From IMG/VR virus record IMGVR_UViG_3300046318_000318: a stretch of 64,000 nt of DNA, one strand, 5' to 3'. Shown piece by piece: positions 9,800 to 26,219 of this stretch. This DNA is from a virus. Its lineage: Duplodnaviria > Caudoviricetes. Position 1 is the stretch's first letter, and every line of letters starts with the position of its first letter. Made by a program: the position numbers and the translations under genes. The notes beneath the pieces are model-generated. The model was not told the origin of the DNA and did not search any database. It saw only the letters and a program-made list of their open reading frames with translations.

Positions 9800-11162
9800 C
9801 TTACTGTCCAATAAAGTCGCTCAGCTTCACAGCTTACCCTCTTTACCCGGTGTGCTCAGACACCCGCCTATATTCTCATACAGGAACAGACTATATCTTC
9901 ACCCTCTGTATACAGTAGGGCGCTCTCCGCTTCGAATACCGCTAGGTATCCTACAGGTTGATAAAACCTTAGTCGTTGAACTTTACACATGGTTGATCAG
10001 AATCAACTTTAGCGTCTTAGCTGCTGATTGTCTCTACCTACTAATTTTCAAACACGTTACGTATGTGTTTTCACACTCCGCTTTGGTTTAGTAGTCTAAC
10101 AAGAGTTTCCAGCAATTCAAAGAGATTCTTTGAAAAGTTTCTTTTCCAAAGGACTTAACTGACTGTAATACACATACTTTCTACCGTCACGGTGAACCTT
10201 TGCTTCTTGGTTTAAACGCCAGTGTAAGGTAGTTATTTTAATACCATTATCGCTAGCGCAACTTGTGACAGACTTATATATTTTTCTTTCGTCTGTCAGA
10301 CAGTTCCAAACAGTTATGACTTTACACCCTGTGAAATTTTCATAACTTTCAATGAAATCTGTGTGTGTTACCCAAGGTATCGAATTATCATTAGGTTTAA
10401 GCTGAATAAAATTATCTATAACCGGCTGATCTTTGTTGTAAAACAACTGAGAAACATAACCTGTGCTTAAGCCTAATTTTGACGATACTTCATTACAACT
10501 ACTGTAGATAGTGATTCTTTCAATAGCTGGATATGTTCTCACCGCAACGCTTTTGTTCCTACCGTAAAGTTTTTTCGCTTCTTCTAAATCTTTTATTTCA
10601 ACCCAAGGTGTTTTATCTTTCTTCAGTTTGAATTGTTGACCAGATGGCGATAATCTTTTACCTAGGTATCTTAATCTGTATAAAACAGTATCCTTACTAA
10701 CACCAAGATGTTTGGAACATTCAATGATGCTAGGGTATTCCGATATCAAACCACTTTTAACATCTCTTACTAAAATAGGTAAACACTTTCTACTTAAGTT
10801 GTTAAGACCTGCGTGTTCAACGTTCTGTTTAGGTGTTACGATTTCAAGATTTTCAAGTGTGTTGTTGTGTTTATTACCGTCCTTATGGTTTACATACAAC
10901 TCACCAAACTTTTCATAATCGCTGCAAATAAAACAAAACGCTATCAGTCTATGCAATCCCCAAGTTAAGGTTACGCCATTATCGGATGTTAATCTAATAT
11001 TGGTGTAACCTGCTGGATTTATAGATCCTTTTAAAAACTTTTCTCTATGAAACGAAAAAACTTTTCCATCTGGCGAGACTCTGTATTTAGAGTAACCTTT
11101 TGGAATCTTAAAATTAGGTGTATTACATTCAGTCATATACAGTTCCTCACTGTATATATTTA
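9800..11162 (-). mobile_element. Group I intron (1363 nt) with HNH homing endonuclease, in vRNAP beta at DD|GKR
   Basis: P AAUUGCUGGAA (10107-10117), Q CAAUCAGCAGC (10020-10030), R GUUCAACGACUA (9970-9981), S AAGAUAUAGUCU (9888-9899); GAU| 5' site and terminal G at 9800. Confidence 0.9.
10117..11136 (-). CDS. Intron-encoded HNH homing endonuclease (339 aa)
   Basis: KYRVSPDGKVFS NUMOD4-like segment; LHRLIAFCF...VNHKDGNKHNNTLENLEIVTPKQNVEHA HNH motif; GAGGA RBS. Confidence 0.9.
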   Translation of the reverse strand: MTECNTPNFKIPKGYSKYRVSPDGKVFSFHREKFLKGSINPAGYTNIRLTSDNGVTLTWGLHRLIAFCFICSDYEKFGELYVNHKDGNKHNNTLENLEIVTPKQNVEHAGLNNLSRKCLPILVRDVKSGLISEYPSIIECSKHLGVSKDTVLYRLRYLGKRLSPSGQQFKLKKDKTPWVEIKDLEEAKKLYGRNKSVAVRTYPAIERITIYSSCNEVSSKLGLSTGYVSQLFYNKDQPVIDNFIQLKPNDNSIPWVTHTDFIESYENFTGCKVITVWNCLTDERKIYKSVTSCASDNGIKITTLHWRLNQEAKVHRDGRKYVYYSQLSPLEKKLFKESL

Positions 11163-14845: not shown

Positions 14846-15256
14846 CCTATTGTCCAGTTACAGTCGTTCGGTTTCAAACCTATCATAAAGTAACCCGGTG
14901 TGCTTAGACACCCGCCTTTGGCTTTCCCAAAGGAGCAGACTATATCTTCACCCTCTGTTTATACAGTAGGGTGTTTCCCACTTCGGAGATACTATCTCCT
15001 ACACCTTGCTTAAGGGTTAGTCGTTGAACTTTACGCATGGTTGGCTATAAAGTCAACTTTAGCGTCTTAGCTGCTGATTACCCATTGTTACATTTAATCC
15101 GTTTTCAAACCTTGGCTTTGATTTTCATCTAGCGGTGGTGGATTAACTTTAGGGTGTTCCAGCAATTCAAGAAAAATCTCTTTAAATATTACTATTTAAG
15201 AGGACAATCGGATATAAAATATGAATACTTTTAACTCACTTTTTATATCCTTTTTT
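14846..15256 (-). mobile_element. ORF-less group I intron (411 nt), upstream member of the tandem pair in the beta-prime catalytic motif
   Basis: P 15157-15167, Q 15070-15079, R 15018-15029, S 14937-14948. P2 is UAAAUA-GUAA-UAUUUA; the 5' exon ends GCU GAU and the intron ends in G at 14846. Confidence 0.9.
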
Positions 15257-16702
15257 ATCAGCACCCAATCTCCCAAGCTGCTTCACAGCGGGCGAGAACG
15301 AATTATAAAAACCATTTCCGTGTATGGGAAATTCAGCACAGACAAGTTCTGTAGGTTCCCAGTTATCATCCAGTAAAGTTCTGGTGTCAGCTTCTACTGT
15401 AGACTTCAGGTACACGTAGCTTGGATATATACTACCATACCCAGTGATAGGGTAACGCGTAGCAAAACAAGGTATCTCTTCAGACCCGTGATAAACACTT
15501 AACATGATCAGCTCAGTTAAAGTGATAGGGCTCACTTCTTCTTTGCTGTATCTTTCAGGTAGTTCATCTATGTCTTGTAAGAATCGATATGTGTTGTCCT
15601 TACCTTTAAAGATCAATCCTGCGTAATGACCAGATATCTCTATATAGTCATGTCTTAGGTTCTCTTGTCCGTAAGTAGCAAAGACTTTCTCTAGACCTTC
15701 GTTGGTCATCCACTTATCGTACTCTTTACCATTGATAGGTACAGTTACTTTCTTCAGAGTCTTTTTATCTACCAGTATCATGGGTGTGTTAGGTCCTGTA
15801 AAGACCTTAGACATAAACCCATCTCTTACGTTTCTAATAGAAAGAGGTAGAGTAGCTCTTAGAAACTGATAAAGACCCACCACAGTTTGTTCTGTGGAAA
15901 CAGACTTAGGACCAAAGAGTTGTGTAGACTTACTTACATAAGAGGTAATAACGTTTCTGGTAGAATGAAAAACTTTTCTACCTGCCCACTTACCTAGTAT
16001 GAGTTTAGACTTACCTTCTAACAGATTCTTAATATACTCAAAGATCTCATTACAAGCTATCTGTAGCTGAAACCTCATGTTGTTGAAATACTCAGCATTT
16101 AACTTAGAGTCTACCGTACCTATGACACCAGAAAGAGAAAGTACTCTTCTATAGAGTCCGTTGATCTCATCTTCGCTAGGTTGACTATTCTCATCTAGAG
16201 TATAGTCTCTCATACCAGCTGGCATCACTACAAACTTATCTATCAGAGCTTTACTGATATATTTATTTACCAGCTTAATATTAAACTCTCTCTTAGGAGA
16301 TGGTCTGTCTTCAAACTTGATATCCTTATAATGCTTAACAAAGAAATCAAATCCAGTTTTACCTGTGACAGGATCAGACTTAACAAAGTCTTTAAGTTCT
16401 GTGTCAAAGACAGCGTAAGCTCTAGATGACATGATGTCACCGTAAAGACTCTTAAGATCATAAAGAGCTTTAAAGATGATAGGATGGAAGATCTGGATGT
16501 TTAGATCTATATAAGAGAACATACGGTTTCTCTTCTCTTCCCCCACCATACCGAACGTCTCAGTGCTGAATAAACCATCTGGATGAAAGTTCTTACTGAA
16601 CCCGTCCATGATGTCAAGTACTTTAACAGGTCTTAAACTTCGAATGTCTAGATCTGCTAGGTTAAGCAAATCCAGGTTAAAGGGTAAAGAAGGTGATTGC
16701 AT
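15257..16702 (-). CDS. rpoC: vRNAP beta-prime-like subunit (gp180-like), exon 1 (482 aa); spliced product 482+2+53 = 537 aa
   Basis: FHPDGLFSTETFG, VMPAGMRD, GKWAGRKVFHSTRNVIT and ATRYPITG motifs (beta-prime regions A-D). The ORF runs ...LGAD then KKGYKK* instead of FDGD. Confidence 0.9.
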
Positions 16703-16746: not shown

Positions 16747-19700
16747 ATGGCTAAGAATGTAAAGAAAAAATTACAACGTGATGAGTTTGATCTAGATAAT
16801 GATCTAGACTTTGATGACTTTGGTATGGATGACATATCTTCCGAAATGTCACCAGAGTCTAGTAATTCTAAATCTAGATCCCCTGTCACGGAAGTTTTTA
16901 AAGGCACCATTTCTGGTGCTGCTGGGGAAGTGGTAAGGCCTGAGTTTTTAGCTAAGACTTTAGAAGGTGCTTTACCAGAAACTTTCTCTACCAGTTTCAG
17001 CACAGCTGATAAGGTAATAGACAAAACGTCTAAGCTATATGATGATACTATCAGGGAATTAAAGCCCCAGCTTAATAACCTCGGTAGAAAAATCGATAAG
17101 CTGGTGCCTCAGGAAGAAGGTTTCCTGAGAAGAATGACAGATAAGTTCTTGGAAATGACTGGTGGTAAAGACCAGATTTCCAATTCTTCTTCTGAAGGTC
17201 AACTAGAACAAAGCATCAACAGCACAATAGCTGGAGTATTTGCAGCTAATCAAGAAGCTCAAATACAGATGTCTGCTCGTTCTAACGCACAAGAGAATGT
17301 GCGTGAAGGCGTGGCTAAGAAACGTTTCGATAGCGAAATAGGTGTCTTAGGCGGTATCCACGATAACATAGCCAGATTGACCAGCTATAACGACACTGTA
17401 ACTCAAGCTTATCAAAAGAAAAGTTTAGAGTTACAGCTGAGATCCTTCTTTGCTCAGAAAGAACTTTTAGACTTTACCAGAAAGTACCAAGAAGTATCCA
17501 CTAAGCAATTCGAGGTCATCAGTAAGAACACGGCTTTACCTGAGTTTGTTAAGATACATCAGAGTGAACGGTTTAAAGAAGAATTACAGAACAGAGCTGT
17601 AAGTAAGATAACCAATAAGTTATTTGGCGATAATAGCTTTGTGGATAACTTCTTTAAGCGTCTTACTCCTTACATAGGTGAGAAGGTTTCGGAGATAGCT
17701 CAGGGTATTGAGCAAGGTGCCGGTGCTATCGATATGATAGGCATGGGCGTGGAGACCAACAGATCAATGGGTGGGTCAGCCGCTAGTTTCTTTGGTGAGT
17801 CTATTGGCAGCATGGGGGCGGGTTACATAAGAGATCTTCTCACGCCTGAACTTAGAAAAGAAATTGAAAAAGAGTTTCCTGATCTGAAGATGACCGGTCA
17901 GAAATGGGCAAACCTTATAAAGAACCCACACGAGCTTCTTAAGAAATTCAGAAAATCTGATTGGCTGCAGGGCGGATTAAGTAGTGATAATATTGTTAAA
18001 CGTCTAGCTGCCGAGACTCTGAGCGACATGAGTCACATGGGTGATAATGAAGGACTCAAAGATTCAATAAGCGCTAGAAAAATTTATGCTGGTGATGTTC
18101 CAGGAGTCGAACAACATACCAACAGCAAGATGTTTGTTAGCGTTACCGAGATTATACCTGGCTATTTAGCCAGGATGTATCGAGAACTTAAGATCGCTAA
18201 CGGTGGTGGTGAAACAACACCTCTGACTGTCTTTGATGAAAAGGCAGGAGAGTTCAAAACTGAGGATAAACTTAAAAGCGATGTTTTAGCCAATTTGGAA
18301 AAAACAGCTAAAGATTCTTCTACGTCTTTTAACCGTAAATTAAAAGACGTTACATCTGCAATACTAGGTAATGAAAGCACACCTGAGGAACAAGAACAGA
18401 CAAACAAGTTCTTGGCGGGATTCACTTTTGAGAATTCAAGTGATACTTCCATGCAGGCTATGTTTGACAGTAAATCTTTTAAAGATCTTCCGTCAAAGAT
18501 TAGAGAAAAGTTAACAGAGAAACTATTCCATAAATTAGGGGCTGAAGCCAACCCTGAGCGTGAGGGTAATAAAGGTAGAATGATGAAGGATCTGGAAGAA
18601 CTCAGATCCATGGCTCCTAATATACAAGGTACTATCAACGATCACCTTATGGCTAACCAAACTTCCGCGTTCAATGAACTCGGTATAGTTAAAATGGATA
18701 GTGGTGGTAAGTGGAGTCTTGATAGTGACAAATACAAAGATTGGTTATTAAAACAAGCTGAGTCTGAACGATTAGGTACGTCTGACATCAACGCCAAAAC
18801 TAATATTACTAACTTTAACGGAGTGCAGCTTCCTGGACATAATGGTAAATCTGTGCTTGAAAGTTTAAGCAAGACTGGTATCTTTAATTGGAATTACAAG
18901 AAGGGTCTTGGGGAAGACACAGAGAATGCTAAGATAGGTCCTATGGCCCAAGAGGTCAAAGCCAATTTTGGTAACGCTGCTGCTCCAGATGGTAAGAAAA
19001 TAGATCTGGTTAGCATGAACGGTATAGCCATGGCTGCCATCAAAGAGTTAGATGGTAAGGTATCTAAAGTCATAGATAACAAACCTGAAAACGTCGACGA
19101 TATCTTGGAAATGGCTAAGGTACAGACAGACTATCTTAAACAAATATCTGAGAATACCAAACTAACCAATGAGAAGATGGATAACCTAGGTAAATTGACT
19201 TTACTCAATATACCTGGTATAACTATCAACAGAAACTTCTTTAAATCCATAGGTAGTTCTTTCATGTCAGCTGGTAAGCTGATTAAAGACATGACCATAG
19301 GGACTGGTAGATTTGGACTTAAACTCACAGGTGGTATATTAGGCGCTGGGTTAAAAGGCGCCGGATCTGTGGTGGGTGGTCTTTATAAGAACAAAGATAA
19401 AATAGATTCTGGTATACGCACTGTTGGCAGATTAGGAAGAGACCTTATTACTAACGTAGGAGATATGGCTTATAAAGGTGCAGAACGCTTAGGCGGTAGC
19501 GTTTTTAAGATGGCTGCGTCTTTGGTAAGAGGTACCGTGAATCTGTTTATCGATACAGATATTTATATTAAAGGTGAACTTGCTCCTCGTATCAAAAAGA
19601 TATTGGTGGAGTCTGGTGAGTATTACGATAAGCAATCTGGAACCGTCATTAAGAAGTTCTCTGATATCAAAGGTGATATCGTAGATAAGTCCGGCAACAT

Positions 19701-22700
19701 TGTTATATCAGCAAGTGATCTGGCTAAGGGTTTAGTAGACAGACATGGACATCCTATCAAAACCATGTTTAAGAGCATGTTTGGTATGGCTGCTTCTACT
19801 ATCAAACTTGGTGCTAAGGTAGTAGGCGCTGTGGCGTCTGGTGCTTGGAAACTGGCTACTAAGGGTATTAAAGGCTTTAGAGATGGCGAATTTGGAATAG
19901 GTTTCGGTAACACTAAGATCTTCAACGTACTTGTAGAGATCAGAGATCTACTTAAAGGTCCTGTCTCTAAAAGTAAAAAGAAGAAAAAGAATGGTAAGAA
20001 CGAACCCATTGCTAAAGCTGAAGAAGTCAAACAAGATAACGACGACGCTTTTAAAGAACTTAAAGATATCTTTAAGTCAAGTCCACAAGGGCAAAGTCTT
20101 TTAAAGTTCGCTTCTATATTCGATCCCAGACTGAGCGACGATAATGAATCCACTGCTGATGGTGATAAGCCTAAGAAGAAAGGATTCTTTGCATCTATGC
20201 TAGACAGGATAGATGCTGCTTCTGACGCTCATGACGAACGTGTAAAGAAGTTCAAAGAAGGTCTTGATCAAAATAAAAAAGAAAACTTTGTCGGTCCTAT
20301 GCCTGAGAAGAAAGGTTTGTTTTCAAAGCTATCTTCATACGCTAAAAAGACTAAAGATAAACATGACGAACGTTTGCAGACTCTAGCAGATCAATACAAT
20401 CAGATAAAGAATGGTGGGTTTGTAGGACCCATGCCTCAGAAATCTGATGGAAAAAAAGGTCTCATGGGTAATGTATTCTCTACAGTCAAGAAACAATACG
20501 AAAAACTAAACCCAGCTTTTGTCGGCCCTATGCCACAAAAACAAGAACAGAAATCCATGTTCAAGAGAGCTGGTGAGTATATCAAGAAAGCCTCAGACGA
20601 ACAAAAAGCCAGGATGGTTGTTTTAGCTGAACAGCATGAACAGCTTAAAAATGGTGGTTTCGTCGGCCCTATGCCTAAGAAGAAGAAAGGATTCTTCAGA
20701 ACTGTCATAGGTGATATGGCCAGTGACTTTAAAGAAAATCGCAAAGCTATAAAAGAACACGCTCAGCAACAAGCTGAAAAGAATAAAGAGTCTAAACCTT
20801 CTATACAAGAATCTTCAGAACAGAACACCCCGGACGGTGAAAAGAAACCAGGTTTGTTTTCTAGAGTGAAGAACGGTATAATGGGTAAGCTTGCTGGTAA
20901 GCCAAAGGCTACTATCAAGATGCCTGGTAAAGCTGATAAAGGCACTACTGCTGAACGGTTAGCTAGAATAGCTGCCAAGAAAAAAGAAAAAGCCGGTAAG
21001 TTCAATGACGCGGATGGTGACGGAAGACGCTCTGGTTCCTGGATGGATATATTCGACAGGAATAAAGATAAAACTTCTCAACAGAATCCTGCAGCTAAGG
21101 GTAAGACCAACGCAGATCCAGACATGACTGTTAAGTACAAAGACGGTAATGGACTTGGGTCTATAATGAGTAAACTCATGGGTGTCTTGTCTGGAGCTGG
21201 GTCTTTGATATCAGGCGCTTTCTCTATTTTCGGTACTATAGGTAAACTGGGTAAAGGTTTAATGACCATGGGTAGAGCATTACCTTTAGCTAAGACTGCC
21301 ATGACTGCATTAAGAGCAGCTCCAGCTATAGCCAGTGTAGTAGCAGCTGGTACCATGGGTGGCGGCTTAGCTACTGGTCTTGCTGTTGTGGCTGGAGTGG
21401 GTAGCTTCTTAGTAGGAGCAGCCCCTTACCTTTTAGCAGCTGGTATAGGTTATGGTGCCTACAAAGGTGTTAAATACTTAATGAGGAACAACCTCAACAA
21501 GTATGAAAAATACAGAGCTTATCAGTACGGTTTTAGTAACTCTTCTGGTGATAGTCAACACCATCACAAAGTCATAGAGCTTGAAAATCTTATCATAGAG
21601 AAACATTTAGCTGTCTCTAACGGCGATCCTAAGATAGCTTCTTCTTTGGATTGGAAAGATGTTTCTAATATCTTCGGTGTGAACATAGAAGACAAAGAAC
21701 AATTCGATAAACTGAAAACTTGGTTTAAAGATCGTTTCAGAGTATTCTTTATCAACCACCTTAGAGTTTTATACAACATAGACAAGAATGCTTCCTTAAA
21801 CAAGGTAGACAAGCTTGAGCCTAGTAACAGAAAGCGCTATCTTGAACTCTCTAGTTTTGATGACGGTCCGCATGATGTAAAGACAAGTCCTGTTAAGGAT
21901 GTGCCTGAGTTGAGCGATAACCGTGAGATCATCAAAATAGAAATTAAGAACCTACTCGCTTCTACAGCTGTAGATATTAAATTAGAACCCACTAAAGTAA
22001 TTGATTCTTCAGGTAAGGTGAAAAGAGAAAAAGCTCCTTCATTAGAACCTAAGAAAGAAGACAAAGATCTGATTAAACCACCAGCTGCTAAAACCCAAAA
22101 CACAAAAGCTGTAGAGGGAACAGAAGATGGTAAAACAGAACCTAAAACCACTAATACAGATAGTACAGGTTCTTTAGGTGGTATGAAGACACCTGGTCTG
22201 GCTAATGGCCCTATGAGGGATGGTAGCACAGGTATGCAATTCATCTCACTGAAGCCAGGTGTGGATATAGAAAATCTACATCCAGAAGTTCGTAAGAACC
22301 TTTTGGCTATGGCTCAGGAATACGGTGAGATAACAGGTAAGTCTATATCTCTAAACGATGCGTTTAGATCTTACGAGAAACAAGCTGAAATACACAGAAG
22401 ATCACCTGGTACATCAGCAGCACCTGGTAAGTCTTTACATGAATTTGGTTTAGCCATGGATGCCGACAGAGGCATTATGAATGAACTAGATAAGTTAGGA
22501 CTCATGAAGAAATATGGTTTCACTCGTCCTGTGGGTAGTGAACCATGGCACTTTGAACCAGCTGGTATACAAATGGCTCTGATGGAATCTAAAAAGAATC
22601 CAGCAGTAGCAGCAGATCTTATTAATTACGGTGTGGGTAGAGGCGGTGGTGGTTACGGCACCATTATGCAAGGTGGTCTAAAAGGTCGTAATCACGCAAT

Positions 22701-23991
22701 GGCTAAAGCATTATTAGACGCTACTGCCAACGGAACTATCAATAATCAGTTAACTGAAGAAGACGTCAACTTAGCTGGTAAAGCTATGTCTGATAAACCT
22801 TTAGATAAACCAGCTGCTAAGACTGAGGAAATATCTATAGGCGGAGCATCTTCATTTGACGCTATGGGTAACTTTACAGGCATGGATGATGGGTCGACTA
22901 TCAAAGCTGCTAAAGCTCCTGCATCTTCTGTTCTCAGAACAAATGCGAGCAATAGCACTTACGATGCCTTGGGTAATGTTACTGGTAGTGAAGATGGTAA
23001 GATACCGCAGACAGATACTGTCAGCAAGACAGATGTGCCTCTAGATATAAACGCAGCTATGCAAAAAGCCGCATCGCAAACAGGTGTGGATCTTAATCTG
23101 CTTAAAACCTTTGCTACTTTGGAATCTAACATGAATCCAAATGCAAAGAATCCAAACTCTTCGGCTACTGGACTATTCCAGTTTACCAAAGGTACTTGGA
23201 TGGAGCAGATAAAGAAATATGGTAGAAAATACAACTTGGGTCAGGATGCCTCTCCAACAGATCCTTTGTCAGCTAGTTTAATGGCTGGTGAATATATCAA
23301 AACTAACCTAGATACTCTATCTAAAGTAAAACCTAATCCAGATGACTTAGATTTGTATCTGGCACATTTCTTAGGACCAGCAGGGGCTTCTAAGTTTCTG
23401 TCTGCTCATCCTAACGTACCAGGTTCTCAATTGTTCCCAGCTGCTGCCAGTTCAAATAAAGAAATTTTCTTTGATGGTAGAAGACCAAGAACACTGGCTG
23501 AGATATACGAACTGTTTAAGAAGAAGGTTAGTAAAGCCGGCGGTAAAGCTTTGGGTGCATTAAAAGCCAAGGTTGATTCTGTTACAGGTTCTACCCCATC
23601 TGCTACGACAACTTCTGCTAAACCAAGTACAGAGAGTGCAAACTCTTCTTCTGGTATACAAAATGCTTCTTATCAGGATGTGCCTCAGAAGAAATCTTTT
23701 ACAACTTTCCAACAGGCTCCTGACTTACAATCAGCTGGTAAAGCCAGCTCTGAGCTTGGTAGAAATACCATGCCGGATCTTAATATTGTGAATAATAGCT
23801 TAGGTGAATCACTGAGTGTGCAAAAGCAAATGCTGGATGTACTCAGTAAGATACATGGATTAATTTCCAATAAAGGCAGTGGTGGTAAATCAGATTCTGA
23901 TTCTGAAACTCCTGCGGCTCGTCCGTTGGGTAACAGTAAGAAAGAATCTCTTCCTAACCCTGCTTTAGATTTGAGAAGAAGATCCGCATAA
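16747..23991 (+). CDS. Large tail muralytic / tape-measure-type protein (phiKZ gp181-like, 2414 aa) with internal S74-like domain, M15-like peptidase and SLT-type lytic transglycosylase
   Basis: SLT motif TFATLESNMNPNAKN...SATGLFQF...LYLAHFLG (E at 23122); M15 motif FRSYEKQ...PGKSLHEFGLAMD...EPWH; divergent from the vRNAP genes as in phiKZ. Confidence 0.82.
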   Translation: MAKNVKKKLQRDEFDLDNDLDFDDFGMDDISSEMSPESSNSKSRSPVTEVFKGTISGAAGEVVRPEFLAKTLEGALPETFSTSFSTADKVIDKTSKLYDDTIRELKPQLNNLGRKIDKLVPQEEGFLRRMTDKFLEMTGGKDQISNSSSEGQLEQSINSTIAGVFAANQEAQIQMSARSNAQENVREGVAKKRFDSEIGVLGGIHDNIARLTSYNDTVTQAYQKKSLELQLRSFFAQKELLDFTRKYQEVSTKQFEVISKNTALPEFVKIHQSERFKEELQNRAVSKITNKLFGDNSFVDNFFKRLTPYIGEKVSEIAQGIEQGAGAIDMIGMGVETNRSMGGSAASFFGESIGSMGAGYIRDLLTPELRKEIEKEFPDLKMTGQKWANLIKNPHELLKKFRKSDWLQGGLSSDNIVKRLAAETLSDMSHMGDNEGLKDSISARKIYAGDVPGVEQHTNSKMFVSVTEIIPGYLARMYRELKIANGGGETTPLTVFDEKAGEFKTEDKLKSDVLANLEKTAKDSSTSFNRKLKDVTSAILGNESTPEEQEQTNKFLAGFTFENSSDTSMQAMFDSKSFKDLPSKIREKLTEKLFHKLGAEANPEREGNKGRMMKDLEELRSMAPNIQGTINDHLMANQTSAFNELGIVKMDSGGKWSLDSDKYKDWLLKQAESERLGTSDINAKTNITNFNGVQLPGHNGKSVLESLSKTGIFNWNYKKGLGEDTENAKIGPMAQEVKANFGNAAAPDGKKIDLVSMNGIAMAAIKELDGKVSKVIDNKPENVDDILEMAKVQTDYLKQISENTKLTNEKMDNLGKLTLLNIPGITINRNFFKSIGSSFMSAGKLIKDMTIGTGRFGLKLTGGILGAGLKGAGSVVGGLYKNKDKIDSGIRTVGRLGRDLITNVGDMAYKGAERLGGSVFKMAASLVRGTVNLFIDTDIYIKGELAPRIKKILVESGEYYDKQSGTVIKKFSDIKGDIVDKSGNIVISASDLAKGLVDRHGHPIKTMFKSMFGMAASTIKLGAKVVGAVASGAWKLATKGIKGFRDGEFGIGFGNTKIFNVLVEIRDLLKGPVSKSKKKKKNGKNEPIAKAEEVKQDNDDAFKELKDIFKSSPQGQSLLKFASIFDPRLSDDNESTADGDKPKKKGFFASMLDRIDAASDAHDERVKKFKEGLDQNKKENFVGPMPEKKGLFSKLSSYAKKTKDKHDERLQTLADQYNQIKNGGFVGPMPQKSDGKKGLMGNVFSTVKKQYEKLNPAFVGPMPQKQEQKSMFKRAGEYIKKASDEQKARMVVLAEQHEQLKNGGFVGPMPKKKKGFFRTVIGDMASDFKENRKAIKEHAQQQAEKNKESKPSIQESSEQNTPDGEKKPGLFSRVKNGIMGKLAGKPKATIKMPGKADKGTTAERLARIAAKKKEKAGKFNDADGDGRRSGSWMDIFDRNKDKTSQQNPAAKGKTNADPDMTVKYKDGNGLGSIMSKLMGVLSGAGSLISGAFSIFGTIGKLGKGLMTMGRALPLAKTAMTALRAAPAIASVVAAGTMGGGLATGLAVVAGVGSFLVGAAPYLLAAGIGYGAYKGVKYLMRNNLNKYEKYRAYQYGFSNSSGDSQHHHKVIELENLIIEKHLAVSNGDPKIASSLDWKDVSNIFGVNIEDKEQFDKLKTWFKDRFRVFFINHLRVLYNIDKNASLNKVDKLEPSNRKRYLELSSFDDGPHDVKTSPVKDVPELSDNREIIKIEIKNLLASTAVDIKLEPTKVIDSSGKVKREKAPSLEPKKEDKDLIKPPAAKTQNTKAVEGTEDGKTEPKTTNTDSTGSLGGMKTPGLANGPMRDGSTGMQFISLKPGVDIENLHPEVRKNLLAMAQEYGEITGKSISLNDAFRSYEKQAEIHRRSPGTSAAPGKSLHEFGLAMDADRGIMNELDKLGLMKKYGFTRPVGSEPWHFEPAGIQMALMESKKNPAVAADLINYGVGRGGGGYGTIMQGGLKGRNHAMAKALLDATANGTINNQLTEEDVNLAGKAMSDKPLDKPAAKTEEISIGGASSFDAMGNFTGMDDGSTIKAAKAPASSVLRTNASNSTYDALGNVTGSEDGKIPQTDTVSKTDVPLDINAAMQKAASQTGVDLNLLKTFATLESNMNPNAKNPNSSATGLFQFTKGTWMEQIKKYGRKYNLGQDASPTDPLSASLMAGEYIKTNLDTLSKVKPNPDDLDLYLAHFLGPAGASKFLSAHPNVPGSQLFPAAASSNKEIFFDGRRPRTLAEIYELFKKKVSKAGGKALGALKAKVDSVTGSTPSATTTSAKPSTESANSSSGIQNASYQDVPQKKSFTTFQQAPDLQSAGKASSELGRNTMPDLNIVNNSLGESLSVQKQMLDVLSKIHGLISNKGSGGKSDSDSETPAARPLGNSKKESLPNPALDLRRRSA
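20287..20676 (+). repeat. Four FVGPMP peptide repeats in the gp181-like protein
   Basis: Copies start at 20287, 20419, 20518 and 20659. Confidence 0.8.
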
Positions 23992-24050: not shown

Positions 24051-26219
24051 ATGGCCGATTTAAACAACATAGACCCCACCATAGCTGAAACTCCAGATGG
24101 CGGAAGTATATTCCCTATTACCAAGACGGATAAAGATGAGTTTGCACAAATAGACGATAAGGATTGGGTCAAACAAGCTTTTCTTATCTCAGATATAAAC
24201 CTAGATGAGAGCTTTGACAGAGCTAATAGGTATTTCACATCAGCATCTATGAAGTTCACCAGCACCAAACTGGGTAACAACATAGGTATCAATGCAAGAC
24301 CAGGGTTTACACCTTATGCTGATATCAGACAGGGTAGAAAGAACTCTGTATTTAGACCACCTACTGTAGGTTCTATATCTAACTGTGGTTTAGGTAGATA
24401 CTATTCAGAAGCTATAGATGATCCATCACAGATGATCTTTATTAGATTCGGAGTACCTCAGTTTAATGGATTGTTAAACTTCTTTGCCAGAGCTTATGAT
24501 GCTAACATGACCACGTTAGCTAAAACAGGCAGAGGCTTAGGGTTCTTCTATAACCTAGGTGACTTTGCAGGCACAGCTGTAGGTACTGTGTTTATGCCTC
24601 AGTTGGCTGTTTTGTCATTCTTAAATGGAACTATAGAGACTTTGTTTGGTAGACCCACCACAAAGTTCTATACTCTAAAACCAACCATGCACACATATTG
24701 GTCAGCTGTAAACACACTTGTGAACAGTCTGGCTGTAAACAGAGGTATAATGCCTAAGATGCTTTCTGATGATAAAAATCAGAAGTTAGGTGGTCAGCCT
24801 TTTAGATTAGATACTGAATACTTAGAAGAGATCAAGAAGTTAATGCCGGATCTCTTTACAGGCACTGGAGAGAACGCTAACTATATTGACGTATTCGCCA
24901 TAGCTTCAAAAGCTCAAAGAACAGCTAACAATGTGTTCATGGCCGAATACGACGCCAGTAAGAACAGTGATGACTACAACAGCCATATAGGTTTTTTAAA
25001 GAAGAGATCCGATATTCTTAGAACAGATATGGTTAACCCAGGTGGTATATCTACGTTCTTCAATTGGGTCAACGAGAAGTTAATGGCGCATAGCTATTAT
25101 AAAGCTGGTGTGGATAAAGGTAAGAACTCAGTAGGTGAAGAAACCACTTTGCTGAAAACAGAACAAACTGAATTAGATCCTAGGATAGATACAAGTGATC
25201 AAAAAGGCGGTCAGCTTAAAGAAGCACCTGCTGGGTTCGCTGAATACTTCGATGCTGAGTTTCGCCAAGGTTCTCAGTTTGCTGTATTTAGAGTAGATAG
25301 CACAGGTTCTGTATCTGAGTCTTTCTCTAACGTAACTACAGAGTCAGAACTTTCACAGAAGTTAAATAGCACAGCTTCTCAGATTCGGGATGTTCGATTC
25401 TCATTAGCTGATGGTAACCTAATAGACAATACGCTTACTAACGCAGTCGGTAAGGTAGTGGGAGCAGCTGCTGACTTTGCCATGGGTGCTGTGAGCGGTG
25501 TCACGTTTGGTATCTCTGATCTGATCATGGGTTTAGCTAATGCTGGATATATAGACATACCTAAACATTGGCAAAACTCTAACGCTAAATTACCCACAGC
25601 TTCTTACAAAATGAAACTGGTGAGTCCTTACGGTAACGTGATGTCTCAGTTTCAGAATATGTACATACCTCTCTGCATGCTGTTAGCAGGTACTTTGCCT
25701 TTATCAGCAGGTAGATCAGCATATGGCAGTCCTTTGATCTGTCAAGTATTTGACAGAGGTCGTTGTCAGATCAAACTAGGTATTATAGAATCCCTCTCTA
25801 TCACAAGAGGTACAACCAATCTTCCATTTAACACCACAGGTAATGCCTTAGGTATAGATGTCAGCTTTACCATAGCTGATCTGTCTTCTATCATGCACAT
25901 GCCTTTGACCTCATCTGGTATCTTCGGTAACAAGATAGAGATGACGTTGGATGAAGACAATATCTTATCTGACTATCTGGCTGTGTTAGCTGGACAGGAC
26001 ATATACAGTCAAATCTTTGCTTTACCTAAAGCTAAGCTAAGATTGGCTAAGAAATTATTGACTTTAAACAGACTTACTTCACCAGCTGAGTGGGCATCTA
26101 TAGCTCATGAAACTTTAACATCGGGATCTCTATCGTGGACTCTGGTAGGGAACGTGTTAGAAAACTTGGTGGGTAGCTCTGCTATATTGTCAGGTAGTAC
26201 TAACGCAACAAGAGTTTAA
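24051..26219 (+). CDS. Tail/baseplate structural protein (phiKZ gp182-like, 722 aa)
   Basis: Follows the gp181-like gene; recalled conserved segments GRYYSEAIDD and AEFRQGSQFAVFRVD...SVSESFSN. Confidence 0.6.
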   Translation: MADLNNIDPTIAETPDGGSIFPITKTDKDEFAQIDDKDWVKQAFLISDINLDESFDRANRYFTSASMKFTSTKLGNNIGINARPGFTPYADIRQGRKNSVFRPPTVGSISNCGLGRYYSEAIDDPSQMIFIRFGVPQFNGLLNFFARAYDANMTTLAKTGRGLGFFYNLGDFAGTAVGTVFMPQLAVLSFLNGTIETLFGRPTTKFYTLKPTMHTYWSAVNTLVNSLAVNRGIMPKMLSDDKNQKLGGQPFRLDTEYLEEIKKLMPDLFTGTGENANYIDVFAIASKAQRTANNVFMAEYDASKNSDDYNSHIGFLKKRSDILRTDMVNPGGISTFFNWVNEKLMAHSYYKAGVDKGKNSVGEETTLLKTEQTELDPRIDTSDQKGGQLKEAPAGFAEYFDAEFRQGSQFAVFRVDSTGSVSESFSNVTTESELSQKLNSTASQIRDVRFSLADGNLIDNTLTNAVGKVVGAAADFAMGAVSGVTFGISDLIMGLANAGYIDIPKHWQNSNAKLPTASYKMKLVSPYGNVMSQFQNMYIPLCMLLAGTLPLSAGRSAYGSPLICQVFDRGRCQIKLGIIESLSITRGTTNLPFNTTGNALGIDVSFTIADLSSIMHMPLTSSGIFGNKIEMTLDEDNILSDYLAVLAGQDIYSQIFALPKAKLRLAKKLLTLNRLTSPAEWASIAHETLTSGSLSWTLVGNVLENLVGSSAILSGSTNATRV

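Follow-up and report, generated by a model that had tools for sequence, protein, structure and literature searches.

An internal peptidase S74 intramolecular-chaperone domain in the gp181-type tail protein of an uncultured phiKZ-like jumbo phage

What would an intramolecular chaperone of the peptidase S74 family do in the interior of a phage tail protein that is not a fibre? The question is posed by a single open frame of 2414 amino acids (aa), located at 16747-23991 on the plus strand of a 64,000-nucleotide stretch of DNA from a tailed phage (Caudoviricetes; IMG/VR record IMGVR_UViG_3300046318_000318), the whole of which is referred to here as the window. The gene belongs to an uncultured phiKZ-like jumbo phage, whose largest tail protein it encodes; this protein is of the phiKZ gp181 type. 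An earlier reading of the DNA letters alone, made with no database search (the sequence-only reading), had placed a self-cleaving S74 domain in the middle of this protein. We find that the internal S74 domain is real and widespread among gp181-type tail proteins, and consider it likely that it works: the 2414-aa protein would be a probable tape measure equipped with cell-wall hydrolases, in which aa 679-775 form a functional chaperone and autoprotease. We found no paper describing such a combination, and no description in the literature of an S74 domain in either gp181-like or tape-measure proteins; in a comparative survey of jumbo phages, S74 is recorded for those of 'group 2' only (Iyer et al., 2021; PMC7824862).

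The domain (aa 679-775; 18781-19071, plus strand) is recovered by Pfam, by comparison of a family profile with the PDB and by structural alignment of its predicted model. Translated in the frame of the gene, 18781-19060 reads SDINAKTNI ... FNWNYK ... IGPMAQEV ... IDLVSMNGIAMAAIKEL, exactly as the sequence-only reading had quoted it. The codon for the leading serine lies at 18781-18783 and that for the lysine at 18796-18798; since (18781-16747)/3 = 678, these are residues 679 and 684. Residues 679-743 align with positions 1-55 of the 58 positions of the Pfam profile PF13884 (Peptidase_S74, 'chaperone of endosialidase') at 32.0 bits, against a curated cut-off of 22, the E-value being 1.5e-7 when the full protein is scanned and 1.1e-8 when the scan is confined to residues 640-800. 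A family profile, built from a curated alignment of 77 homologous segments (alignment A1), retrieves from the PDB a tail fibre (8jov, 1e-6), the ICA domain of MyRF (7dc3, 5.5e-4) and the neck-appendage chaperone of phage GA-1 (3gud, 1.3e-3). A single-sequence phmmer search of the PDB with aa 640-800 returns noise only; hence, the family profile is needed to reach these structures. The S74 match is far beyond chance, and residues 679-775 are a true S74 intramolecular-chaperone domain. Scanned in all six frames with a hidden Markov model (HMM) of the family, the window shows this one copy and no other. The domain starts at 28% of the length of the protein and ends at residue 775 of 2414, with 1639 residues after it, and the internal position that the sequence-only reading had likened to that of MyRF (about 1640 residues downstream of the domain) is thereby borne out.

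The predicted structure agrees with this assignment. An AlphaFold2 model of residues 609-819 has a mean predicted local distance difference test score (pLDDT) of 80.6, and its top Foldseek entries are all S74 chaperones: 7dc3 (E 3e-3, probability 1.0), 3gud and 3gw6, with nothing in that search at E <= 1e-3. VIA-align, used as a second fold comparison after Foldseek, ranks the MyRF ICA domain first (7dc3_B, Z 7.1, root-mean-square deviation 1.8 A over 79 residues), followed by the endosialidase chaperone (3gw6_D, Z 6.5, 3.6 A over 83 residues) and the GA-1 chaperone (3gud_B, Z 5.8, 3.8 A over 84 residues); the unrelated entries have Z <= 4.5 and match single helices only. The predicted fold is thus that of the solved chaperone domains. 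The protein nevertheless falls outside the class of S74-bearing phage fibres and spikes: its domain is internal and the module upstream of it is predicted to be all-helical.

Does the domain retain the means to cut? Two residues define an S74 autoprotease, a serine at the very start of the domain and a general-base lysine five residues on, and both are present as S679 and K684. Ser679 occupies position 1 of the PF13884 profile, and it aligns with residue 1 of the released chain 3gud_A, which is the cleavage serine of that protein, and with the serine position of MyRF 7dc3. This places the predicted scissile bond between Thr678 and Ser679 (18778-18783, plus strand). The domain is carried by 86 metagenomic homologues that are only 25-35% identical to the query; the serine at 679 is retained in 83 of them, Asp680 also in 83 and Lys684 in 84. 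Not all of the apparent exceptions are genuine, since an insertion between motif and core can shift the alignment, as a direct check of one of them (P0032) showed. The serine, the aspartate, the lysine, Y717, G731, M733 and A734 are invariant in the 77 aligned homologues. A regular-expression scan gives the same picture: 156 giant proteins have the domain; a G-P-M-A-Q core is recognizable in 151 of them, and none of these 151 lacks S-[DS]-x3-K ahead of the core, most often at a distance of 42 residues. The canonical spacing of the dyad, which the sequence-only reading had pointed out, is therefore nearly invariant across the family, and these comparisons show a Ser/Lys pair that is canonical, intact and, by its conservation, under selection. 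In characterized S74 members such as endosialidase and MyRF, the serine and the lysine are reported to serve cleavage only (Schwarzer 2007 and Schulz 2010, as cited in PMC7824862). Self-cleavage before S679, which would yield a 678-aa helical N-terminal piece and a 1736-aa C-terminal piece, is a strong prediction from the sequences.

Trimer modelling, suggested along with the sequence-only reading as a check, gave a score well above its controls. Three copies of residues 609-819, supplied with the alignment, were predicted to associate with interface scores (ipSAE) of 0.74, 0.74 and 0.76 over three runs, against 0.02 for the best of three controls; the result is a prediction only. In calibration of the tool, 20 of 30 solved homo-pairs scored this high, as did 1 of 23 single chains. 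Contacts agreed between the runs to at least 34%, and the partner pLDDT was at least 54. The confident interface covers model residues 96-207 (aa 704-815) and takes in the S74 core together with the next helix. This conserved helix (aa 783-818; 19093-19200, plus strand), seen in the AlphaFold2 model at model residues 175-210, is part of the predicted interface and is also kept in homologues that have lost the S74 core. The prediction supports trimerisation; solved S74 trimers exist, so the score may partly reflect likeness to them.

The protein that houses the domain had been called gp181-like in the sequence-only reading, and the homology searches agree. Over aa 3-870 it matches the PHROGs family PHROG 3201 (phrog_3201) with an E-value of 7.6e-184, and its C-terminus matches transglycosylase families. 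By tblastn, 210 jumbo phages are matched at about 22-24% identity over residues 46-666/709, the genes hit including those for phiKZ gp181, Goslar gp204 and PS119XW gp214. A megablast search of the gene against 50,697 phage records gives no nucleotide match; the homology therefore exists at the protein level only. The surroundings of the gene are equally telling. Upstream and divergent lies a gene for a piece of the virion RNA polymerase β-subunit, similar to phiKZ gp180 (15236-16702, minus strand; PHROG 2986, E 3.8e-165), and downstream lies the homologue of phiKZ gp182 and Goslar gp203, a tail-tube initiator component (24051-26219, plus strand; BLASTP 3e-59 to phiKZ gp182 and 1e-32 to Goslar gp203; PHROG 3181). 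This is the gene order of phiKZ, Goslar and PS119XW, with virion RNA polymerase β genes upstream on the opposite strand and a gp182-like gene downstream. With a homologous N-terminal module, a C-terminal muralytic domain and a conserved gene neighbourhood, the 2414-aa protein is, as judged from sequence comparison, a distant homologue of phiKZ gp181 in conserved synteny.

In phiKZ-like phages gp181 is the largest gene and is essential, and the phiKZ protein bears a lysozyme and is a probable tape measure. Older reviews place gp181 at the baseplate, as a cell-puncturing device (PMC5380687), and Goslar gp203, the counterpart of the downstream gene, has been modelled within the tail-tube initiator complex (PMC13742148); the two latest whole-virion structure papers, one on phiKZ and one on Goslar, do not mention gp181 in the text searched. 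Also in the window, beside the virion RNA polymerase β-subunit gene, is an open reading frame (ORF) for a 339-aa HNH endonuclease (10117-11136 of the window, minus strand; PHROG 59, E 4.5e-41).

The remaining parts of the protein are in keeping with a tape-measure-like protein. The N-terminal module (aa 1-678; 16747-18780, plus strand), the predicted product on the N-terminal side of the cut, is what the gp181 family as a whole has conserved; its AlphaFold2 model is entirely α-helical, with helices of up to about 90 residues and a mean pLDDT of 63, rising to 80-90 over aa 460-678, and a PDB fold search with this model of mean pLDDT 63 gave no meaningful match. Downstream of the S74 domain there are four protein-level repeats of about 45 aa (aa 1140-1320; 20164-20706, plus strand), each consisting of a helix followed by G-G-F-V-G-P-M-P-x-K and ending in FVGPMP, a motif found at aa 1181, 1225, 1258 and 1305; Tandem Repeats Finder detects no DNA-level tandem repeat in the gene. 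A close homologue (P0003; 92% identical over the full-length alignment and 96% over residues 1-900) has two repeats versus four here, with an 80-aa gap, a difference that looks like the variation in repeat number that tunes tape-measure length. Two Gly/Ala-rich hydrophobic, membrane-like segments follow (aa 1477-1498 and 1527-1569; 21175-21453, plus strand), identified by Kyte-Doolittle hydropathy; 19-residue windows above 1.4 occur nowhere in the protein other than within aa 1477-1569. They resemble the membrane-inserting segments of tape-measure and ejection proteins, and we infer a membrane role for them. Gly-rich stretches are also present in the protein.

The muralytic domains that the sequence-only reading had expected C-terminal to the S74 domain are found there, one of the two at the margin of detection. 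A VanY-like cell-wall peptidase stretch of the peptidase M15 type (aa 1843-1911; 22273-22479, plus strand) matches PF02557 at E 9.2e-5 and 22.7 bits, just below the cut-off of 25, and the same family has been precomputed for many homologues. An SLT lytic transglycosylase domain (aa 2105-2192; 23059-23322, plus strand) matches PF01464 at 36.3 bits against a cut-off of 21.3, and its region is 40% identical to aa 1854-2056 of phiKZ gp181. The long helices, the Gly-rich and hydrophobic segments, the variation in repeat number and the statement in the literature for phiKZ orf181 together lend indirect support to the view of the 2414-aa protein as a probable tape measure.

How general is the arrangement? 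Residues 1-900, searched against 5.8 billion proteins, gave 271 relatives, and PF13884 is precomputed in most of the best 90 of them. Of 120 listed proteins examined for the domain with our own HMM, 86 have it, with the serine at residue 659-970 and always in the same relative place, at about 0.28 of the length. For the remaining 34, and for the proteins of phiKZ, Goslar and PS119XW, the family HMM has no hit even at E < 1, and Pfam likewise detects no S74 domain in the latter three. When the domain alone is searched exhaustively with HMMER against 1.84 billion representatives, 624 clusters are matched at E <= 1e-3, of which 150 reach E <= 1e-10; the best 150 are mostly proteins of at least 1900 aa with the domain at about residue 640-1240, while some 35 are proteins of 245-480 aa in which it is C-terminal.

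The sequence-only reading had spoken of an insert that homologues might lack. Such homologues exist, namely those of the three cultured phages and the 34 metagenomic proteins; the domain itself looks less like a recent insert than like an ancestral part that was lost repeatedly. In an N-module tree (123 rows, FastTree, unrooted, quick), carriers lie on both sides of the midpoint root with non-carriers nested among them, and at least 8 changes are needed, 6 of them forced by well-supported branches. A tree of the S74 domains alone (102 columns), built to see whether the gp181 copies arose once and apart from the short C-terminal forms, has 8 changes, only 2 of them forced by well-supported branches. 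Two non-carriers, P0036 and P0038, are colinear over their full length with the carrier P0020 (43% identity end to end); their S74 region is about 60 residues shorter, with all motifs gone and the following helix retained. In phiKZ gp181, which is colinear through the S74 region, the sole G-P-M in 2237 residues is at residue 727, and the surrounding stretch (aa 713-731; L001, NC_004629), L-G-D-Q-N-N-P-H-F-I-G-P-M-Y-Q, matches the family core consensus (G-D ... H-x-G-P-M-x-Q), the Ser/Lys part being absent. This stretch is, on sequence grounds, probably a relic, or fossil, of a lost S74 core. The N-module tree, P0036 and P0038 and the phiKZ relic suggest an S74 domain of long standing in the family that several lineages, that of the cultured models among them, have lost. 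The G+C content of the domain (0.412) equals that of the rest of the gene (0.405), and so the domain is not a recent acquisition.

Naturally split forms, with the N-terminal module and the S74 part as a gene of their own, were sought, and only contig-truncated pieces (P0122, P0123 and P0128) and unrelated short S74 proteins were found. Some irregular genes may be recorded here. In the contig L006 (4221-11571), the gp181-like gene is present as two ORFs of 614 and 1856 aa, with a 95-nt frame overlap, which meet at a degenerate S-V-Y-V-K motif, the core after the motif being intact. In L008 (8001-14782), a near-identical contig from the same JGI sample, a 608-bp out-of-frame deletion removes the end of the N-terminal module and the first half of the domain. 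We do not rely on these breaks as evidence of a natural split: they come from one sample and could be real variants or assembly errors. Further, some gp181-like ORFs (L007 194-6802, which is P0152; P0143; P0180) start at a point equal to residue 457-535 of the full-length relatives, that of L007 overlapping an unrelated upstream ORF by 4 nt; such late starts could mean that the N-terminal module is again split between genes, or is interrupted by a mobile insertion or an intron.

Comparison with known systems shows what is shared and what is new. With the fibre-type S74 chaperones, including those of the K1F endosialidase, the GA-1 neck appendage and the T5 L-shaped fibre (PF13884; 3gw6, 3gud), the domain has in common the Pfam family, the Ser/Lys(+5) pair at its start, the core motifs W-x-Y-K and G-P-M-A-Q-E-V and the closing helix; the fold matches and a trimer is predicted here. 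In the fibre type, however, the domain makes up the last 100-150 residues of a fibre or spike, chaperones a triple β-helix and is discarded, whereas here it lies inside a non-fibre protein, after a helical module and ahead of the 1639 enzyme-bearing residues. In cultured phages, the nearest S74 domains form the C-terminal ends of virion proteins about 430 aa long, in phages of 58-62 kb (Pavtok gp24, Itty13, CF418P1). Separately, we note the settings of the nearest S74 domains outside the gp181 family, which belong to small phages and are the last part of virion proteins 290-430 aa long: L004 (Erwinia phage Pavtok, 5975-7276), L005 (Achromobacter phage CF418P1, 5844-7031), and L011 and L012. 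The Pavtok gene lies three genes upstream of that for a giant DarB-like protein with a transglycosylase, and in L011 and L012 the S74 gene comes shortly after an SU10-type adaptor gene. These settings suggest an S74 sub-lineage on non-fibre, possibly ejected, proteins.

The ICA domain of MyRF (7dc3) is the best structural match to the domain, and in both proteins S74 is internal. As in MyRF, a cut at the domain would here release an N-terminal trimer from a long C-terminal remainder with membrane-like segments. Unlike MyRF, the 2414-aa protein has neither an NDT80/PhoG DNA-binding domain nor an MRF_C1/C2 domain (no Pfam match at E <= 1), and the contexts differ: the endoplasmic reticulum membrane and an upstream β-helix in MyRF, the phage virion and an upstream helical segment here. 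The likeness is one of arrangement only, and this is not a MyRF-type transcription factor. With phiKZ gp181 and Goslar gp204 (PHROG 3201), the structural peptidoglycan hydrolase and probable tape measure of the Chimalliviridae, the protein shares the N-terminal module, the colinear architecture, the C-terminal SLT domain and the gene neighbours; the cultured members (phiKZ, Goslar, PS119XW) lack the S74 domain, with only the short core-like relic left in phiKZ. Lambda gpH, which is processed to H*, and T5 pb2 are long trimeric tail-lumen proteins with muralytic and membrane-active parts that are cut during tail maturation. Neither cut is known to be made by a built-in S74 domain, and it is in this respect that the present protein differs, the predicted protease being part of the protein itself.

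We can now return to what the domain would do. During tail assembly, three copies would associate through the S74 core and the following helix (aa 704-815), and this association would set the three-fold register of the long helical protein. Lys684 would then activate Ser679, and the Thr678-Ser679 bond would be cut to give the 678-aa all-helical N-terminal piece and the 1736-aa C-terminal piece. The latter would have the S74 domain first, followed by the Gly-rich stretches, the membrane-like segments, the VanY-like peptidase and SLT. Other tape measures have their lytic and membrane-active parts at the distal end, and by analogy this piece may lie on the baseplate side and attack the cell envelope. 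The N-terminal piece would form a separate, head-proximal trimer on the neck side. If so, we infer a departure from the textbook S74 case: the chaperone-bearing piece would be the large functional one, as in MyRF, rather than the small one that is thrown away.

Four points weigh against this account. The segment upstream of the cut is predicted to be α-helical, whereas the solved examples chaperone a triple β-helix or a β-prism. The confident trimer contacts begin only at aa 704, so that the cut site and the segment upstream of it lie outside the modelled interface. Among the 50,697 phage records, none from a cultured phage encodes a gp181-like protein with an S74 domain. Finally, repeated loss of the domain has left the remainder of the protein colinear, which means that folding of the N-terminal module and the function of the protein do not strictly need it.

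The first two of these points bear on an alternative in which the domain folds and trimerises the protein with no cutting, or only inefficient cutting, and thus acts as a built-in trimerisation knot in an uncleaved tape-measure-like protein. The position of the interface in the core and following helix, away from the cut site, and the helical upstream segment, unlike known substrates, would both suit it, and so would the population represented by L006, which keeps the core while the Ser/Lys motif is degenerate (S-V-Y-V-K). Yet the conservation of Ser, Asp and Lys equals that of the structural core at 25-35% identity, and this is hard to explain without catalysis; we regard such a non-cutting knot as unlikely. 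About as improbable, in our estimate, is a more far-reaching version of the cleavage account, by which S74 would be the ancestral built-in maturation device of the chimallivirus tape-measure/lysin, used in a MyRF-like manner. The C-terminal piece would insert in the envelope through its Gly/Ala-rich segments and digest the wall, and the pre-cut N-terminal trimer would be ejected separately and have a role of its own early in infection; phiKZ and Goslar would be derived forms that have lost the device and in which the protein is matured or used differently.

A further reading accepts the cut and reverses the fibre case: the 678-aa N-terminal piece would be a scaffold or pro-piece that is discarded, with only the C-terminal piece staying in the virion. 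It has in its favour that the trimer-forming helix and all the envelope-acting domains are on the C-terminal piece, and that in L006 the two parts are called as separate ORFs meeting at the S74 motif; that contig and L008, however, come from one sample and may represent an assembly error or a defective variant. More seriously, nothing in the family is better conserved than the N-terminal module, and this holds also for phages that lack S74 and could not remove it in this manner; we judge the reading quite unlikely. Least credible is the idea that the gene was once fused with one of fibre type and that the domain is a neutral leftover of this old fusion, with no present function: its several losses without loss of the gene could be taken that way, but its motif set is near-invariant over deep divergence where present and decays quickly where lost (P0036, P0038), which together indicate selection while it is present, and its G+C content, equal to that of the rest of the gene, tells against recent acquisition.

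The account that we prefer, a working chaperone and autoprotease within a probable tape measure, thus concerns a domain that is conserved with its catalytic residues in more than 100 related uncultured phages and absent from the cultured models, which is probably why it has gone unnoticed. For the gp181-type protein, the cultured model phages are not typical of the family. If most uncultured relatives carry the module at a fixed point, there follows a testable prediction of how this tail-lumen protein is assembled and matured: three chains and one defined cut. Should this prove true, S74 chaperones would serve helical, non-fibre virion proteins as well, and the gp181-type proteins would provide a prokaryotic-virus counterpart of the internal arrangement of MyRF.

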